From positions 2,583,574 to 2,647,573 of the forward strand of contig CBDFJQ010000002.1 in assembly GCA_965248575.1 (NCBI GenBank): a stretch of DNA of 64,000 nt, given 5' to 3'. Below, piece by piece: positions 3,360 to 12,186 of the stretch. A model generated the notes under the pieces. The model searched no databases. It was not told where the DNA came from and worked only from the letters and a program-made list of their open reading frames with translations. Position numbers and translations under genes: made by a program. Each line of letters opens with the position of its first letter. Positions within the stretch are counted from its first letter, which is position 1. The stretch comes from Planctomycetota bacterium (GTDB lineage Bacteria > Planctomycetota > B15-G4).

Positions 3360-3500
3360 GGAGAAACTCCGGAAACGGGGTAATCGTCGGATCCGCGCTG
3401 CTCAAGCGCTGGTACGCGTGCTCCAAACCCACCCGTGGAGCCCCGACGATGGGCAGGAGATTGCCGGATCGAGGGGTCCTGGCGCAAACCCTGGGGAGGC

Positions 3501-4244
3501 TCACCCCTTGGCTTGGTTCGCCACGGCCTCGGCAGCCTTCTTCGCAGCCTCGGGGTCGCCCAGATAACGGCTGCTGATGGGCGTCAGGTCATCATCCAAC
3601 TCGTACACGAGAGGAATGCCTGTAGGGATGTTCAGGCCCAGGATGTCCTCGTCGGAGATTCCATCGAGGTGCTTCACCAGTGCGCGCAGGCTGTTGCCGT
3701 GGGCCGCGATGATCACACGCTCTCCCCGCTTCACGGCCGGCGCAATGACATCGTTCCAAGCGGGAAGGAAACGATCGACCGTGTCCTTCAAACATTCCGA
3801 CAATGGGATCTCATCTGTCGCGAGCGAGGCGTAGCGTCGGTCGTGTCCTGGCCAGCGTTCATCACTCTTGTCGAGCGCGGGCGGCGGCACATCATAGGAG
3901 CGGCGCCAGATGAGCACCTGATCAGCTCCGTGCTTCTCCGCCGTCTCCGCCTTGTTGAGCCCCTGCAACGCCCCGTAGTGCCGCTCGTTCAACTGCCACA
4001 TGCGATGCACGGGCAGCCACATGCGGTCCATCTCGTCGAGGCTCAGCCACAGCGTCCGGATGGCGCGCTTGAGCAGCGACGTGTAGGCCACGTCGAACTC
4101 AAAGCCTCCCTCCTTCAACAGCTGACCGGCTGTCTTCGCCTCATGCACTCCCTGCTCACTGAGGTCGACGTCGTACCAACCCGTGAAGCGGTTCTCCTTG
4201 TTCCATTCGCTCTGACCGTGGCGCAGCAGGACGAGGGTCTTCAT
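3501..4244 (-). CDS. gpmA: 2,3-bisphosphoglycerate-dependent phosphoglycerate mutase
   Basis: 247 aa. It carries the catalytic His motif [10 protein letters not shown] and a highly conserved dPGM fold ([22 protein letters not shown]). Confidence 0.92.
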
Positions 4245-4403
4245 GACGAGGCATCTCAGGCAATGACGGGATGGTTGTGAACGGGGGCGGCTGTCGGCAG
4301 CCGACGTCGGGTGCGCGCAGCCACGGCTTCGCGCCTATCAAACCGTGCCGGCTCCGGGCGGGCAAGGCATGTTCGGCCCAATGCCCCGGGGCGCGGCCGA
4401 CGC

Positions 4404-5360
4404 TCAGACCAGGAGCTTGATGGCAGCCGGCACAACTCGCGCGTCAAAGGGAGCCTGCCCCACCAACTCTCCGTCGATGTTGAGCGAGCTCGCGCCCTCC
4501 GCCTCCAGGCGAAATTGCGACACCCGGCGAGCGATCACGAGCGGCGAACTCAGGTGCTCCGCTGTTCGTAGTTTGGCGAAGAGCCCGAGCAGCGCGGCCC
4601 GAGTGCCTCCGCGCACCACGATCAGGTCCAGCAGGCCATCGTCGATCCGCGCATCCGGGGTGATGCGCATCCCGGCCCCGGTGTGCCGCGTATTGCCCGC
4701 AAACACGAAGCGCAAGCTCCCCTCCAGGACCTCATCCTGCAGCACCACACGCCCCCGACGGGCCGGCTGCTTCAGGACTTCCAGCACGCTCGCCACGGTG
4801 TAGCGGCTCGACCCCATCCAACGCAGCTTCTCGGACCGGGCGCCGATATCCGAGACGAGACCCCAGCCGATGATGTTGAAGGCGTGCACGATCTGCTGGC
4901 CCATCTCGACCCGGACCAAATCCAGGGAGCGACGGCGCCCCGAGAGGATCCGGCGCGCCGCTTCACGAGGGTCCAAGGCAGCCAGGTCATGCATGAGGGC
5001 GTTGCCGGAGCCGCCCGGCAGAACAGCCAGCGGCGGCTGCCAGGCGTCCAGGCCGGCGGCAGCTCTCCGATCCATGAGCCCGTTGACCACCTCGTGGATC
5101 GTGCCATCACCGCCGAGCGCACAGAGCGCCATGCCCTCATGCAACTCGAGCTGGCCCGCCAGTTCGCGCGCGTGCCCCGGCGCCTCGGTCTCGTGAACCT
5201 GCAACTCCACACCCTGTGACCGCAGGTGGGCATCCACCTGCGAGAGCACATGCGCCGCACGTCCCCCGCCGCCGTGGGGGTTCATGACGACGGCGAGGGC
5301 CCTGGGCGCCGGTGCATGTACCGGTGCAGGCACCGGCTGAGCTGCTTGGGGCTTAGCCAC
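4404..5360 (-). CDS. Diacylglycerol/lipid kinase catalytic-domain protein (YegS/BmrU-like)
   Basis: 318 aa. The DAGK_cat signatures are VVMNPHGGGG, GGDGTIHEVVNGL and PGGSGN. The start codon is uncertain because an N-terminal Pro/Ala-rich stretch precedes the domain. It overlaps the upstream lipoprotein gene by 8 nt. Confidence 0.75.
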   Translation of the reverse strand: MAKPQAAQPVPAPVHAPAPRALAVVMNPHGGGGRAAHVLSQVDAHLRSQGVELQVHETEAPGHARELAGQLELHEGMALCALGGDGTIHEVVNGLMDRRAAAGLDAWQPPLAVLPGGSGNALMHDLAALDPREAARRILSGRRRSLDLVRVEMGQQIVHAFNIIGWGLVSDIGARSEKLRWMGSSRYTVASVLEVLKQPARRGRVVLQDEVLEGSLRFVFAGNTRHTGAGMRITPDARIDDGLLDLIVVRGGTRAALLGLFAKLRTAEHLSSPLVIARRVSQFRLEAEGASSLNIDGELVGQAPFDARVVPAAIKLLV

Positions 5361-6003
5361 CGCCCATCAGCGCGTCCACTTCGGCAGCGGACATGCCGTT
5401 GAGCTTGTCCAACTGCTTGTCGAGGTCCGCCTCGAACTCCGCTGCGTCCGCCTTGATGCGCTTGCGCGTCAACTCGCGACGGAACGCCGCGTTCATCTGA
5501 TCGCGATAGGTGAGGATCACATCGTCCAGGTCCATGCGGTAGAGCACGAAGTAGGTCTTGGCGATGGGGTCGTGGAAGTCGTCCCACTGCTTGGCGCCGG
5601 AGATCATCTGATCCGACACCTGTCGCGAGATGTCCTGGGTGTATTCCACCGACGAGGCCGTGTCCATGGACTCGTAGTAGTCGCGGTTCGAGGACATGTA
5701 GTCCGTCACCATGCTTTGCACGAGCACGTTCACCGTGCGGGCGATCTCAGTGCGCGCGCGGGTGCGCGCCTGTGTCAACTGCATGGCGCGGTTGGGGTTC
5801 GTCTCGGCAATCCCCACGCCGTAGACGGCACGAACCTCACCCTCCTCACCGATCCGGTTGGGGCGGGAAATCCACTCGGGCGAGTTGGACGCCGTCGAGA
5901 GACTCTGGGGTTCGGTGGACGCACACCCGGTGGCCAGCCCGCAAGCCATGAGGCCTGCCAGAAGGGTCGCCGGGGAAAGTCTGCTCAAGATGGGTCGTGC
6001 CAT
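5353..6003 (-). CDS. LPP20-family lipoprotein
   Basis: 216 aa. The signal peptide has lipobox LMAC|G. The LPP20-like core is RAVYGVGIAE...AMQLTQARTRARTEIARTVNV...YFVLYRMDLDD. Confidence 0.65.
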   Translation of the reverse strand: MARPILSRLSPATLLAGLMACGLATGCASTEPQSLSTASNSPEWISRPNRIGEEGEVRAVYGVGIAETNPNRAMQLTQARTRARTEIARTVNVLVQSMVTDYMSSNRDYYESMDTASSVEYTQDISRQVSDQMISGAKQWDDFHDPIAKTYFVLYRMDLDDVILTYRDQMNAAFRRELTRKRIKADAAEFEADLDKQLDKLNGMSAAEVDALMGGG

Positions 6004-6273
6004 GGTTTTGATCCTTTTTGAAGCCGCGACGTCCGTGAGACAAGCGGCAAGTCATGAGGGCTTCGAAGAGTGCATTTCGCAAGCCATCACTTGGGTCTGT
6101 GGCCAGCCTGCCAAACGCGGCGAGCGGCCTCTAGGGGGCAGACCCGGGGAAGCACACGGGAGCCTTGCGTCCAAGTCCTGCAAGCGCTGGAGGCCGGGTT
6201 TCCCCTGAAGCGGCTTGCGTGCAACCATTCAAGCGCCTGTTCCGCACCTCCCCCCCTGCCTCAGGGACTGCCC

Positions 6274-7791
6274 ATGACCTTTCGCTGTCTGCTCGCCATC
6301 GCGCTGCTCTTGCCTGGCTGCCTCAGCACCTCGGGGACCTCCTTGCCCAAATGGGTGGATGCGCCGGCAAGCCATCCTCGCTGCGACCGGCGAGAGGCAC
6401 TGTGCGCCGTGGGCATCGCCTCGGGCTCGGGCCAGGCCGCCCGGGAGCTCGCACAGCAGCGCGCCCTGGAGCAGATCGTGTCGTCGGTGCTCGTGTCCGT
6501 GCAGAGCACCATCGACCTGGACTCCACGAGCCGCCGTTCCAACGACGACATCTTCTGGACAGATGAGGTACGGGAGCGCATCCGGGTCAGTTCCCAGCAG
6601 GAGGACCTGCCCGGACTGGAAGTCGTGGAACGCTGGGTGCATCCCACGCGGCGCGAGGTGTACGTGCTGGTCAAGGTGCCCCGGGAACTCCTGCTCGACC
6701 GCTGGATGCCCCGTGTCGGTCAGGCCCTGGCTGAAGCCGAGACCTATCTGCTGACGGCCGACGAACTGAGCATGCACAGCCCCGGCCGGGCCATCCACAA
6801 CACGCTCGAGGCCTACCGGGTCGTGGCCGGCGCCTACGGAGACGCCATCAAATCCAAGGTCGTCGCGCGGGAATCCAGGCAGCGGGGCCAAGCCGATCAG
6901 AGCTTCGCGCGGACGTCCCAACTTATGGCAGAGACATCCGCTCGCCTGGCTCAGCTCATCGGCGGCGTGCGTCTGGTCAAGTTGGCCGGCGACGGGCAGG
7001 CGGGTGTCGTCCGCGGCAGCCTGCCCCAAGCCCTGCGCGTGCGCCTGGAGTACCAAGACCTCAAGGGCGAGGTGCAACCACTGCAGGACGTTCCACTCCG
7101 ATTCGCCTCGCGCATCGAGGGCGCCGCGGATGTGCTGACGGATTCCTCCACCACGGATGCCGCAGGGGAAGCCAGTTGCCGCGTCGTGAACCTGGGCCCC
7201 ACCGGCCTGGCGAACAACGAGATCCTGGTCCAGCCGGGCTTCAGCACGGTGGCTCCGGACCTGGCAGACAAGCACGTCCCCGCCGCGAGCTTCGTCTACC
7301 ACCTCCCCACCGCCGCCGGGACCACGGTGGTGCTCGCCGTCCGTGAAATCTACGAAGGCTCGCAGCTCTCTCCTTCTGTCCTGCAGGGCGAGCTGGCCTC
7401 GCACCTCTCGGGCTTTGGCTTCAGCGTCCGGGGCCAGGAGCCCAGTGCCTCCATGCCTTCCATCGATCTCGAAACCAGCACCGACCCACAGGCCCTGCGC
7501 CAGGCCCTGGGCCCGGACGCGGACGTCCTCTTGCGCGGCCGGGCTGAGGCCCGCCACAGCAGCCTCGAGAATCAACTGCACTGGTTCCGGGCCTACGCTC
7601 AGCTTGAGTTGGTCAACATCGACTCTGGCCGCGTCACGGCCCTCAGCACCGAAGAAGTCAAAGACGCCCACCGCGAGCACTCGCAGAGCGGCGCCATCCG
7701 GGCCCTCAAGCTGCTCAGAGGCCCGCTCTTCGCCGAGCTCGAACGGACTCTCGTCGCCGACTTCGTTCCCAGCTCTTCGCTTGAGCCGTAG
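6274..7791 (+). CDS. Lipoprotein with N-terminal LPP20-like domain and long C-terminal extension
   Basis: The start codon was re-placed at MTFRCLLAIALLLPGC (lipobox LLPGC), so the ORF-track start at 6070 is an upstream in-frame extension. The N-terminal domain CAVGIASGSG...ARELAQQRALEQIVSSV...VYVLVKVPRELL resembles LPP20. The gene is divergent from the 5353..6003 LPP20 gene. Confidence 0.6.
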   Translation: MTFRCLLAIALLLPGCLSTSGTSLPKWVDAPASHPRCDRREALCAVGIASGSGQAARELAQQRALEQIVSSVLVSVQSTIDLDSTSRRSNDDIFWTDEVRERIRVSSQQEDLPGLEVVERWVHPTRREVYVLVKVPRELLLDRWMPRVGQALAEAETYLLTADELSMHSPGRAIHNTLEAYRVVAGAYGDAIKSKVVARESRQRGQADQSFARTSQLMAETSARLAQLIGGVRLVKLAGDGQAGVVRGSLPQALRVRLEYQDLKGEVQPLQDVPLRFASRIEGAADVLTDSSTTDAAGEASCRVVNLGPTGLANNEILVQPGFSTVAPDLADKHVPAASFVYHLPTAAGTTVVLAVREIYEGSQLSPSVLQGELASHLSGFGFSVRGQEPSASMPSIDLETSTDPQALRQALGPDADVLLRGRAEARHSSLENQLHWFRAYAQLELVNIDSGRVTALSTEEVKDAHREHSQSGAIRALKLLRGPLFAELERTLVADFVPSSSLEP

Positions 7792-7824
7792 TCCGCTCCT
7801 CGCACGACGCACGGGGCCGGGGAT

Positions 7825-7915
7825 CGCTGAGCCTGGCCACTAGATCTGCTGCTCAGACAACGAGGCAAACAGACGCCTCGAGAACTCGCCTCAGATCTAG
7901 TGGCCAGGCTCAGCG
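7825..7915. repeat. Perfect palindromic element A: 24-bp stem (7825-7848 / 7892-7915) around a 43-nt centre that itself contains a 6-bp hairpin (cgaggc-aaacagac-gcctcg)
   Basis: Read directly from the sequence. gctgagcctggccactagatctg is at 7826-7848 and its exact reverse complement cagatctagtggccaggctcagc is at 7892-7914. The flanking C/G pair extends the stem to 24 bp. Confidence 0.9.
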
Positions 7916-7919
7916 CTCC

Positions 7920-8072
7920 CCTCCTCGGTGGAGGAGGTGGACACGATCGGGGCGTGGGGGGAGACGAGTCGACACCTCTTTACGAGTGTGGTGGCGAGTC
8001 GACAGCCGGATCGATTCACCCACTCCCCTGAAAGGAGCAGCACAGTGCCCTCGGAAAGATCCACCGAGGAGG
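7920..8072. repeat. Inner 13-bp inverted repeat (cctcctcggtgga at 7920-7932 / tccaccgaggagg at 8060-8072), nested between elements A and B
   Basis: An exact reverse-complement match seen in the sequence. The intervening segment also holds a 10-bp direct repeat cgagtcgaca, present twice. Confidence 0.8.
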
Positions 8073-8077
8073 CGGGG

Positions 8078-8168
8078 CCTGATTTTCGGGCAGGCGATCT
8101 GAGGCGAGTTCTCGAGGCGTCTGTTTGCCTCGTTGTCTGAGCAGCAGATCGCCTGCCCGAAAATCAGG
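8078..8168. repeat. Perfect palindromic element B: 24-bp stem (8078-8101 / 8145-8168) whose 43-nt centre is the exact reverse complement of the centre of element A
   Basis: cctgattttcgggcaggcgatctg is at 8078-8101 and its exact reverse complement is at 8145-8168. The centre 8102-8144 equals RC(7849-7891). The 55-bp core gatctg...cagatc (7843-7897) is therefore repeated, inverted, at 8096-8150. Confidence 0.9.
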
Positions 8169-8243
8169 TCCCGCCGGCACACCGCCTGCACCTCAACCAG
8201 AGGCACTGCTGCGAGACGCCCGCTGACTGCGTATCCTGCGGGC

Positions 8244-8912
8244 ATGACTGAGAGCACTGACAGCCGTTTTGTTCCGCTCACCGAGCGCTTTGCCCCTGAC
8301 GCCCCACCGGAAGCGGCCGCCCGCGACTTCTATGAGGTCATGCGGCTGCGTCGCACCATCCGGGAATACTCCGACCGACCCGTGTCACGCGAGACCATCG
8401 AATGGGTCGTGCGGGCCGCGGGTTCGGCACCTAGTGGAGCGAACAAGCAGCCCTGGCGTTTCGTGTGTGTCCAGGACCCCGAGACCAAACGGCGCATTCG
8501 CGAAGCCGCCGAGGAGGAAGAGCGCGCGTTCTACGCGGGGCGTGCCAATGAGACCTGGCTTGCCGACCTCGAACCCCTGGGCACGGACACGGACAAGAGC
8601 TTCCTGGAAGTGGCGCCGTGGTTGATCGTCGTCTTCAAGCTCATCCGCGATGACGATGGTGGGCAGGTCTACTACCCCGCAGAATCCGTGGGCCTGGCAG
8701 CGGGCATGCTGTTGGCGGCGGCCCACCACGCGGGCCTGGCGACGCTCACGCACACCCCCAGCCCCATGGCCTTCCTGAGCAAGGTGCTCGAGCGGCCCGA
8801 CAACGAGCGCCCCTTCTTGCTGATCCCCATCGGCTACCCGGCCGAGGAATGCCTGGTGCCCAAGCTGGCCCTGACGCGCAAACCCCTGGACGAGATCATG
8901 CTCGTCCGCTGA
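8244..8912 (+). CDS. Nitroreductase-family flavoprotein (iodotyrosine-deiodinase-like subgroup)
   Basis: The start was placed at MTESTDSRF; the ORF-track start at 8133 lies inside palindromic element B. YSDRPVSRETIEWVVRAAGSAPSGANKQPWRFVCV... is the typical nitroreductase FMN-binding N-terminal region. Confidence 0.75.
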   Translation: MTESTDSRFVPLTERFAPDAPPEAAARDFYEVMRLRRTIREYSDRPVSRETIEWVVRAAGSAPSGANKQPWRFVCVQDPETKRRIREAAEEEERAFYAGRANETWLADLEPLGTDTDKSFLEVAPWLIVVFKLIRDDDGGQVYYPAESVGLAAGMLLAAAHHAGLATLTHTPSPMAFLSKVLERPDNERPFLLIPIGYPAEECLVPKLALTRKPLDEIMLVR

Positions 8913-8917
8913 GGCCT

Positions 8918-10384
8918 TCAGGCACCGGCGCCCTGCTCCTCTTCGGGCCCCGCGTCCTTCTCAGGGCCCTGCTCGGTGTCCAGGTCCGCTTCACTGCTCT
9001 CGGCCGTCAGCTGGAACACGGTCGGCGTGGGTTCGCGCACACCCGATTCGATCACCGGCGGCGAGGACACGCGCTTGACCGCCTCCGGCAGCCCGAGTTC
9101 CTCCAACTTGCGGCCCTCCACCAGCACGCGACTCTCGAAGCTGCCCATGGCCTTGTTGTAGGCCGAGACCGCCCCGTCCAACCCCCTGCCGACGCGGATC
9201 AGATGGTCCGTGAAGACCGTCACGCGCTTGTAGAACTCCTGGGCGACATTCATGGCCTCTTGGGCGTTGAGCGCGATCTTCTCCTGGCTCCAGTAAATCC
9301 CCACCGTGCGCAACAGGGCGACCAGCGTGACCGGCGTCGCGATCAACACCCGATCGCGCAGGGCCTCCACCTGCAGATCCGGGTTCTTCTGGAAGGCCGC
9401 CGCGAGCACCGGCTCGGCAGGCACGAACATGACCACGTAGTCGATCTTCGCGTCCAGGCTCTTGGCGTAGTCCTTCTTGGCCAACTCGCGCACCCGAGTC
9501 CGCAAGGCGACCGCGTGCTGGGCCAGGAAGCGCTCCCGTTCGGCGGGGTCACTCGTCTCGGAGGCCTTCTGATAGTCCGTGAACGGCGCCTTGGCATCGA
9601 CCGGGATGGCCCCACCCCCTGGTAGCTTCACCACCATGTCGGGGCGCTGCCCGTCTGCATCCGTGACTTGAAGGCTGAAGTCGCAGTGCTCCGTCATGCC
9701 TGCCAGCTCGGCCACGTTGCGCAGGGCCATCTCGCCCCAACGACCTCGGGCCTGGCTACTGCCGCGCAAGGCCTCCGTCAGGGCATGGCTACTCTTGTGC
9801 AGCTCTGCCGTCGTGCTGGCCAGCTGGGTGAACTGTGCCTGGATCTCACCGTAGGCCTTCTCGCGTTTGGCCTCCAGCTGCTGCGTGCTCTCACCCACCG
9901 CCTTGAGCTTCTCGGTCAGCGGCTTGACCAACGCCTCGATCGCCTGCTTGCGCTGCTCCAACTCCGCAGCGCCATGCTTCTCGCTGATCTCCAGCTTCGA
10001 CTTGGCCAGCTCCAGGAATTGCGTCGTGCTCTCCTGCAGCACCTTGGCCGCGGTGGAGCGGAAGGTCTCGACGGTGCGTTTCTCGGCTTCGAGATGGGCG
10101 TTCTCCTGTTCCTCCCGGCGCGCCTCGGCCGCAGCCAACTCGGCGCGCGCCAGGGCTGACTCCTCTTGTACCCGCTTCAATTCCGTTTGCAGGGCCTCCA
10201 ACTCGACACGGGCTTGGCCGCGTGTCTCTTCCCGCTCCCGGCGCAGCTCGTCCCGCTCCCGGGCGGCGGCTTCCAACTCCCGCTGGCCTGCCGCCTTGGC
10301 ATCCGCGGCACCCTTGCGCCCCAACCAGAGCCCGAGGGCGAGGCCGGCAACCAAGGCGAGAAGAGGAATCAGGGCATCGGGCAT
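8918..10384 (-). CDS. rmuC: DNA recombination protein RmuC
   Basis: It has an N-terminal TM helix ([22 protein letters not shown]) and a long coiled coil. The conserved RmuC C-terminal domain is present (...[15 protein letters not shown]...[19 protein letters not shown]...[10 protein letters not shown]...). The start was trimmed from the 545-aa ORF to the Met preceding the TM helix. Confidence 0.85.
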
Positions 10385-10490
10385 GGCGAACACTCGGACC
10401 GCGGGTGCGGGTGGGTCGGGGCAGGCGGCCGAGGATACCCTGGCGGGCACCTCGCAGCCCCCTCCAGCCTCCTCACCCACGAGCGCCCCC

Positions 10491-10910
10491 ATGAAGTCCC
10501 ATCGCCAGGAACTCTGGTTCGAAGTCCCCCAACGCCGAGGCTTCCTCAACATCACGCAGCACGTTCAGCAAGCGCTGAGCGACTCAGGTATCCGCGAGGG
10601 GCTGTGCTTGGTGAATGCCATGCACATCACCGCCAGCGTCTTCATCAACGATGACGAAGCCGGGCTCCACCAGGACTACGAGCGCTGGCTCGAGCAACTG
10701 GCGCCTCACGAACCCCTCTCCCTCTACAAGCACAACAACACCGGTGAGGACAACGGAGATGCCCACTGCAAGCGCCAGATCATGGGTCGCGAAGTGGTCG
10801 TGGCCGTCACGGACGGGCAGTTGGACTTCGGCACCTGGGAGCAGATCTTCTACGGCGAGTTCGACGGACGGCGCCGCAAGCGCGTGCTCGTGAAGATCAT
10901 CGGGGAGTAG
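10491..10910 (+). CDS. yjbQ: YjbQ/UPF0047 family protein (secondary thiamine-phosphate synthase-like)
   Basis: 139 aa. The YjbQ family core is [12 protein letters not shown]...[31 protein letters not shown]...[19 protein letters not shown]. It is the 3' part of the 347-aa ORF 9867..10910 and starts at the ATG at 10491. Confidence 0.8.
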
Positions 10911-12186
10911 GCTTTGGCGATCCGGGGGGAGCGCCCGGCCCTGATCCAGAGGGGACGTCGGCCGAAGATCGCAGGGCAGCCAGGGCGGTCAGGAACATCA
11001 GGACCGCCGCCAGGACGAAGAGCGGGCCGAGGCCGAACTTGGCTCCCAGCATGCCGCCGCCCAAGGGCGCCGTGGCCCGGGCCAGGACGACCACCGAGAA
11101 GGTCACGCCCTGGGCTGCGCCGCGCTTCTCCACCGGGCTGTTGCGTGCGGCAGCACTGAAAGCCGCCGGCACCACACCCGCAACGAACGCGCCGCTCGCA
11201 AAGCGCAAGAGGGCCAGCAGGGTGACGTCGTCCACGAAGCGCTGGCCCAGATAGGCCGCCCCTGCACCTGCGGCGCACACCGCCAGCAGACGGCGGTTCC
11301 CCAGGCGATCCCCGATGCGCCCCCAGACGGGCGTGAACATCAGGGTCGCCAGGGCCTGAGCGCCGAACACCAGTCCTGTCACCGTCTCCAACCGCTCCGG
11401 TTCGAAGCCGGTGCGGGTCTCGACCCAGAGCGCCAGCAAGGGGTCGAGCAGGGACGCCCCGAAGCGCACGGCGAAGGCCCCCGCCAGCACGATGCGCAGC
11501 ACAGGGTGGCCAAGGAAGGCGCCCACGTCGCGCATGACGGCTCGCCACATCGCCAACGCCTCGGGCTTGGAGGCCGCGGCCGACGGATCGTCCTCGGGCT
11601 CCTTCACGAACAGCGCCACGAGCAACAGGGCCACGACGCTCAGGGCTGAGCACACCACGAAGACCGCCCGATGCCCGAACTGGTCGGCGATGGTCCCACC
11701 CATGAGCGGTCCCACGATGCCTCCCGCCATGAGCGCAGTCTGCAGGTTCGCGGACACGCGCCCCTGCCGTGCGGCGGGCGTGCTGACCGAGACGAGCGTC
11801 ATGGCTGGGGCGATGAAGCCCGAGAACACTCCCTGCCCCAACCGCAAGGCCAGCATGGGCCACGGCCCGCTCACAAAACCCATGGCACCCACGAAGATGA
11901 CGATGGCCATGTTCGCGCGCAGGATCATCAACTTGCGCCCGTAGCGATCGCCCAGGGCACCCCAGAAGGGCCCCATCAAGGCCGCCGGCAAGGGCGCCGC
12001 CGCGACGATGATGCCCGACCAGATGCGCACCGCCTCGTCCCCCACCACCCCGATCTCTTCCATGTAGAGCGGGATCAGCGGCAGGAAGCCCATCATCCCC
12101 ACGGAGGTGATGAAGTTGCTGAACCAGATGAGGATGAAGTTGCGCCGCGCGTAGGGCGGCACATCGTCGCGGGGACTCTCGGTCAC
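10897..12186 (-). CDS. MFS transporter
   Basis: 429 aa with 12 predicted TM segments. The MFS motif A-like loop is [12 protein letters not shown], and a second loop is [11 protein letters not shown]. Confidence 0.85.

Follow-up and report, generated by a model that had tools for sequence, protein, structure and literature searches.

What is the nested complex of perfect inverted repeats that lies between a lipoprotein gene and a nitroreductase gene in a Planctomycetota bacterium? The complex falls within a window of 64,000 nt, which is the whole stretch of DNA analysed here. A first-pass annotation, made from the letters alone, had proposed a ~200-bp invertible promoter segment, a mobile element that targets palindrome centres, or a switch in RNA or single-stranded DNA. 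A script reproduced every coordinate and every reverse-complement relation in that annotation, and the flanking genes were as it had placed them, with the lipoprotein ORF ending at 7791, the nitroreductase ATG at 8244 and 452 nt between them. We conclude that the complex is not a new kind of genetic switch but an IS-derived palindromic repeat, and that it is probably a degenerate, transposase-less remnant of an ISKpn6-like element of the IS1182 family with two inward-facing ends. The locus contains the following features:

6070-7791, plus strand: upstream gene, encoding an LPP20-type lipoprotein; its TAG stop codon (7789-7791) abuts the insertion
7792-8216, no strand: inserted element of ~425 nt, in which two IS-end modules face inward across a 119-nt interior; on the right, the boundary can be placed only approximately, at 8186-8216
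7809-7936, plus strand: palindromic module copy A, canonically oriented, outer side on the left; covariance model R1 133.5 bits, E 9e-28; alignment A1
7825-7848, no strand: left arm of the copy A stem, which pairs with 7892-7915
7849-7891, plus strand: copy A apex, asymmetric, 43 nt, with an inner hairpin at 7861-7880
7892-7915, no strand: right arm of the copy A stem, a perfect 24-bp stem
7920-7932, plus strand: copy A inner-flank motif CCTCCTCGGTGGA, which aligns with CCCTCCTCGGTGGAGG of L087R and related copies
7937-8055, no strand: remnant interior, non-coding, 119 nt
8056-8185, minus strand: palindromic module copy B, in inverted orientation, outer side on the right; R1 145.1 bits, E 2e-30; alignment A1
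8060-8072, minus strand: copy B inner-flank motif, the same as that of copy A
8078-8101, no strand: arm of the copy B stem, which pairs with 8145-8168
8102-8144, minus strand: copy B apex, 43 nt, the exact reverse complement of 7849-7891
8145-8168, no strand: partner arm of the copy B stem, a perfect 24-bp stem
8244-8912, plus strand: downstream gene, encoding a nitroreductase; 452 nt from the lipoprotein gene, compared with 26 nt in the relative L001

Scripted checks showed that the paired 24-nt arms of each copy, the two 43-nt apexes, the two 55-nt cores (7843-7897 and 8096-8150, 198 bp apart) and the nested 13-bp repeat (7920-7932 and 8060-8072) are all exact reverse complements. These repeats lie far beyond chance: perfect 24-bp inverted repeats with a spacer of up to 100 nt are expected ~3e-7 times per 64 kb of the same composition, and the 43-mer apex occurred 0 times in shuffled sequence. 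A repeat search found imperfect extensions of both hairpins, to 7810-7848/7892-7930 for copy A (87%) and to 8071-8101/8145-8175 for copy B (97%). What looks like a 43-nt loop is an imperfectly paired, asymmetric continuation of the hairpin, which includes the inner 6-bp hairpin at 7861-7880 (CGAGGC-AAACAGAC-GCCTCG, confirmed by script) and is capped by the 8-nt loop AAACAGAC. The cores are two copies of one ~130-nt palindromic module, made of a ~31-40-bp stem and a conserved 43-nt apex. The arms of the two copies had been taken for unrelated sequences, which was an error: aligned in register they are identical at 18 of 30 positions, and they belong to one homologous stem family that is also found elsewhere. 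Folded as single-stranded DNA with DNA parameters, copy A reached -46.8 kcal/mol (z -8.4) and copy B -47.5 to -50.8 kcal/mol (z about -11). Neither the repeat search nor covariance model R1 found a third copy within the window, and the pair is the single one in 64 kb of the host genome.

The interior between the modules contains a 22-nt imperfect direct repeat (77%; 7953-7974 and 7983-8004, 30 nt apart) with the core GAGTCGACA, also written (A/G)CGAGTCGACA. At 8045-8140, an SD-like AAAGGAG precedes a GTG-started ORF of 31 codons that enters copy B; we judged this ORF to be probably spurious as a gene, and the equivalent frame in copy A meets a stop.

The module is present in ~9 other places in public metagenome contigs, and ~10 copies are known. 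One exact-word metagenome scan with the apex 20-mer matched six JGI metagenome contigs (L081-L086). Four of the six begin or end within the repeat, which is the typical sign of a dispersed repeat that breaks assemblies. These copies form the kind of dispersed family of similar palindromes that, by the first-pass annotation's own account, lowers the standing of its finding. In alignment A1, the copies in L081-L086 share apex, stems and flanks with the window copies, in the order outer flank (..GGCGnnGTGCCGGG), long stem, 43-nt apex, return stem and inner flank (CCCTCnTCGGnGGAG). All full copies have IS-type flanks, GGCG.. on the outside and CC(C)TCnTCGGnGGA on the inside, which are also found in an IS end that has no module. 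The genes that the copies adjoin are unrelated (methyltransferase, MscS channel, SDR, fatty-acid hydroxylase, aldehyde dehydrogenase and Fe-S protein), and the module occurs in both orientations relative to its neighbours.

A second inward-facing module pair was found in L082, where the modules lie 477 nt apart without a clear terminal repeat. Pairs are always convergent, as IS ends are (window, L082 and L087), and their interiors are unrelated in sequence and in length (127, ~350 and 426 nt). The remnant interior of the window matches no protein and is not homologous to the interior of L081 or of L082. We rejected the idea that the interiors hold a conserved passenger, the window, L082 and L081 interiors being unrelated.

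Other searches for copies were negative. The exact 43-mer had no match in 185,579 species-representative genomes, the apex 20-mer had none in viral contigs, and a blastn search for distant matches found no counterpart of the intergenic region among plasmids and phages. Covariance model R1 detected no diverged extra copies in the window and 49 fetched loci, and a search for copies in protein space, with the spurious ORFs that run through the hairpin, returned only the ORF of L087 itself. In L086 (1-125; JGI Ga0055584_100282990), the apex is flipped relative to the flank on the terminal-repeat side, compared with all seven complete copies. This contig starts within a 57-nt stretch that is common to four contig ends from the same assembly (L082, L083, L085 and L086). 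The flipped apex could be a real flip of the loop between the palindrome arms or an artefact of the assembly graph.

The element in L081 (1668-2364) has inverted termini in which CTAG is followed directly by GAGTCTGCGCCACAGATC, and its interior is a deleted transposase gene with fused N- and C-terminal remains. The module sits in the transposase-upstream end (2175-2364; module 2229-2329). The other end (1668-1748) is homologous on both sides of the module position and lacks ~101-109 nt, and we saw no duplication or direct repeat at the L081 module junction. The module may have come into the IS ends by insertion, or palindrome deletion may have removed it from some of them. A protein search with transposase fragments reached the loci L087-L092, L094 and L095. 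L087 is an internally deleted IS of 1,235 bp (164-1398) with a module in both ends, facing inward. The ~1.57-kb IS in L088 and L089 has the same termini, is flanked by CTAG at either end and lacks the module. The termini recur in L090, L091, L092 and L095, again in elements that lack the module, and L094 has neither a recognisable terminus upstream of the gene nor a module. The module-free ends (L081 1668-1748 and the right end of L088) contain no palindrome.

The transposase fragments best matched the IS1182 family NF033551 (102 + 159 bits for L088 and 153 bits for L087), with Pfam matches to PF05598, PF01609 and PF13751 in the related loci, and over the N-terminal 162 residues the transposase pieces share 55.6% identity with ISKpn6. 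ISKpn6-like elements are relatives of the IS that flank blaKPC. The terminal repeat of ISKpn6 is essentially the same as that of the related loci (TAGGAGYCTGCGCGGCAGA), and TAGGAGTCTGCGC, which is identical to the ISKpn6 ends, stands CTAG-flanked at both ends in L081, L087 and L088. The likeness of the module-bearing relatives to ISKpn6 and the IS1182 family therefore lies in the terminal repeat (C)TAGGAGYCTGCGC..., in CTAG at both borders and in the transposase domains DUF772, DDE_Tnp_1 and DDE_Tnp_1_6. By contrast, ISKpn6 and most relatives have ~35-60 nt from the terminal repeat to the transposase start and no palindromic module. Because it is absent from ISKpn6, L088-L092, L094, L095 and one end of L081, the module is optional in this IS family, and, judged from these alignments, it is a sub-terminal component of an ISKpn6-like sub-lineage. 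The two local palindromes, the long-range repeat and the nested 13-bp repeat then follow together, because IS ends are inverted copies of each other and the module is in both.

In the nearest relative, the MAG L001, the orthologous locus has 26 nt from the lipoprotein stop to the nitroreductase ATG, and the two genes are probably co-transcribed there. The L001 orthologues are 56% (lipoprotein) and 82% (nitroreductase) identical to the window proteins. The C-terminus of the lipoprotein can be aligned to L001 through its last residue, and window positions 8217-8243, the ~27 nt before the nitroreductase ATG, are homologous to the L001 spacer. Because that spacer is only 26 nt, ~425 nt (7792 to ~8216) are extra in the window: the element is present at this site and absent from the orthologous site in L001. 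The protein encoded by the neighbouring RmuC gene has one moderately close relative, in L001 at 72%, and all others are at ~54% or below; relatives of RmuC being so few and distant, the lineage of the window is poorly sampled. At the left border of the element, TAG (7789-7791) adjoins as CTAG does in L081, L087 and L088, and no matching copy was seen at the right border. Borders at or abutting stop codons were seen in the window (7789-7791, TAG), L081 (2361-2364, CTAG), L087 (159-167, TGAG followed by CTAG) and L084 (2286-2290, TGA). These borders suggest that a target preference for CTAG may land on TAG stop codons in GC-rich genomes (the window genome has 66% GC).

The window copy is decayed. 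No transposase remnant was found in the element, whose ORFs have no Pfam or transposase match. The similarity of its outermost ~20-45 nt to the TAGGAGTCTGCGC terminal repeat is not significant on either side, with z values of -1.5 to 0.9 against L081, L084 and the left end of L087 and of 3.0-4.6 against L087R only. Homology to IS ends stops 5-13 nt beyond each side of the ~130-nt module. We saw no target duplication at the borders of the element; a 4-bp duplication has been reported for the IS1182 member ISPse1 (PMC3281130). The window copy differs from ISKpn6 and the IS1182 family in having no transposase and neither a terminal repeat nor a duplication that can be recognised. At ~425 nt and without a transposase, the element is as small as a MITE. 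It is a MITE-like relic and not a bona fide MITE, because its flanks are degenerate, it shows no visible duplication and no transposase remnant, and its interior is unrelated to those of other copies. The element is now an immobile fossil.

We computed covariation and identity over seven full copies. In the 31-bp main stem, 17 of the 31 pairs have changed on both sides and none on one side only. Stem cells were paired in 92% of cases, compared with 82% in column shuffles and 34-47% in slid controls. The non-Watson-Crick cells were strand-symmetric (A·C/C·A, 11; G·T/T·G, 9). An RNA under selection is expected to show many G·U intermediates on one strand. The mismatches have no such strand bias, which argues for a palindrome of DNA and against a selected RNA, and the pattern points to maintenance of the palindrome at the DNA level. 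Template switching during replication is known to turn imperfect inverted repeats into perfect ones (PMC7202029). Such quasi-palindrome correction fits stems that stay perfect as they drift, and it fits strand-symmetric mismatches. It is, however, a mutational process and not a family of elements, and it leaves the conservation of the apex unaccounted for.

That conservation is pronounced. Identity among copies was 0.98 in the apex (minimum 0.95), 0.71-0.73 in the stems and 0.65-0.72 in the flanks. The apex of the window differs from those of the metagenome copies by one or two substitutions, although their terminal repeats can no longer be aligned. A near-identical apex beside unalignable terminal repeats implies that purifying selection would have acted on the apex sequence, and the status of the element as a fossil does not account for it. 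No consensus promoter or intrinsic terminator was found in the module in the window, L087 or L081. A coding role was rejected as the reason for the conserved apex: both of its substitutions are non-synonymous in the open frame, a start codon is missing from the window copies and the L087 insertion breaks the frame. This insertion, in the left-end module of L087 (245-264), is a 20-nt imperfect duplication (ATGGGCCGCTGTTGGACAGG) within the otherwise invariant apex.

These observations bear on whether the module belongs to the IS at all. In one alternative, the ~105-130-nt module would be a palindromic element in its own right, mobilised in trans in the manner of a nested MITE or REP-like unit, that colonised IS ends and, independently of them and twice over, this region. 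A module that is optional in the IS family could be such a passenger, and the ~101-109-nt presence or absence within homologous IS ends (absent from L081 1668-1748 and from L088, present at L081 2229-2329) speaks for this account, as do the module-free state of most relatives with the same terminal repeat, the want of recognisable IS terminal repeats around the window and L082 pairs, and an apex far more conserved than its surroundings. We nevertheless consider it unlikely. Every full copy has the IS-type flanks that also occur where the module is missing from an IS end, which means that IS sequence came along with the window copies; there is no target duplication or direct repeat at the module junctions; the pairs in the window, L082 and L087 always converge in the manner of IS ends; and the stems differ strongly among copies, unlike those of a unit that spread recently. 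Insertion into palindrome centres, which the first-pass annotation had suggested for its mobile element, was also rejected, the arms being homologous between copies and the module-free ends having no palindrome. That annotation is thus partly supported: of its proposals, only a mobile-element origin holds, in general terms and not in the version it put forward.

The two switch-like readings fare worse. A selected structured RNA, whether a UTR element, a small RNA or an RNase III-controlled switch between the local hairpins and the 55-bp long-range duplex, draws on the very stable predicted folds (z -11 on both strands, with a minimum-energy structure that uses the long-range duplex) and on the strong stem covariation and conserved apex. 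It is highly improbable all the same. Across the whole 64 kb, no Rfam family scored as high as its gathering threshold, tRNAs, rRNAs and riboswitches included, and the sub-threshold matches were generic long hairpins of the miRNA-precursor type (for example, 35 bits against a gathering score of 137). The main stem has no one-sided G·U intermediates, with mismatches that are symmetric between strands; the neighbouring genes are functionally unrelated and differ from copy to copy, with the module in either orientation; and the module is absent from the orthologous locus of L001. A phase-variable segment (7898-8095), flanked by the 55-bp inverted repeats and switching a promoter for the nitroreductase gene, is barely credible. 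A perfect 55-bp inverted repeat with its copies 198 bp apart could in principle allow RecA-dependent inversion, and the flipped apex of L086 hints that small flips between palindrome arms may occur, but the L086 orientation may itself be an assembly artefact, as that contig starts in the repeat common to four contig ends. The eight main ORFs scanned at 3435-12186 (~3.4-12.2 kb) encode a DAG kinase, LPP20 lipoproteins, the nitroreductase, RmuC, an MFS transporter and two proteins without a Pfam match; they include no recombinase. A scan for consensus promoters on both strands of 7600-8400 found 0 sigma-70-like sites, and so none inside the segment. Finally, the repeats are fully explained as IS ends, and homologous pairs enclose interiors unrelated in sequence and length.

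We therefore return to a remnant of an ISKpn6-like element as the preferred explanation. A derivative of such an IS would have inserted directly after the lipoprotein stop codon. It would have come from a sub-lineage with the ~130-nt palindromic module just inside each terminal inverted repeat; with the IS ends inverted, the modules would face each other and produce the 55-bp, local and 13-bp repeats all at once. Template-switch correction may have kept the stems perfect at the DNA level, or selection may have favoured the extrusion of hairpins or cruciforms. The apex would be a site that the transposase or a host protein recognises by its sequence, or else an insulator against read-through that served the transposon. 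At present, the likely effect of the element is passive: two very stable stem-loops would separate two genes whose counterparts in L001 are 26 nt apart and probably co-transcribed. Predicted RNA folds also allow an alternative form, in which one long-range duplex of ~55-90 bp would lie between the genes. In a read-through transcript, the stem-loops may act as a barrier or as a site of double-stranded RNA processing. A bolder proposal is that the module acts in cis, has its own function and is new to description. It would be a DNA hairpin or cruciform with a strongly selected, asymmetric 43-nt apex that some protein or nucleic acid recognises; it would ride on ISKpn6-like ends or be mobilised through them, and selection would keep it after the terminal repeats have decayed, as they have in the window. 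We hold this to be rather unlikely.

Two known groups of elements resemble the complex in part. The Correia elements (CREE) of Neisseria are described as binding IHF and RNase III and as altering the expression of adjacent genes (PMC2649163). Like the window element, CREE are small, transposase-less and intergenic, with inverted repeats that form long RNA or DNA hairpins, and by analogy with them the present effect of the window element on its neighbours is probably passive. However, the two are not similar in sequence. Each end of the window element is itself a long palindrome whose apex is conserved; the element has an identified parent IS and degenerate terminal repeats, and no promoter or IHF-like site was found in it. 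REP and BIME sequences share with the module that they are dispersed extragenic palindromes with compensated stems, located after stop codons. REPs are units of 20-40 nt that occur in very large numbers in a genome and are associated with RAYT (Y1) transposases. The module, by contrast, is ~130 nt long, is present twice in the 64 kb and belongs with a DDE element of the IS1182 type, and so shows neither the 20-40-nt unit, nor the high copy number, nor the Y1 transposase of the REP/RAYT class.

A nested-repeat complex that looks like a switch is thus transposon debris and should be annotated as an IS1182-family remnant. An ISKpn6-like sub-lineage with an optional long palindromic end module may be of interest to specialists in mobile elements. 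Its sole surprising feature is that the stems drift with full compensation and the 43-nt tip stays near-invariant across different environments. Having split a gene pair that is 26 nt apart in L001, the insertion may also have changed the expression of the nitroreductase. Neither the palindromic end module nor the split of the gene pair opens a long-standing question.

The surrounding genes have a history of their own. RmuC and the nitroreductase gene lie tail-to-tail and 5 nt apart in the window (8912-8918), compared with ~2.8 kb between them in L001 (1123-3962), and this difference in spacing indicates that the neighbourhood has been rearranged more than once. Upstream of the element, two genes for LPP20-domain lipoproteins stand side by side in divergent orientation (5353-6003 on the minus strand and 6070-7791 on the plus strand), an arrangement that is kept in L001.
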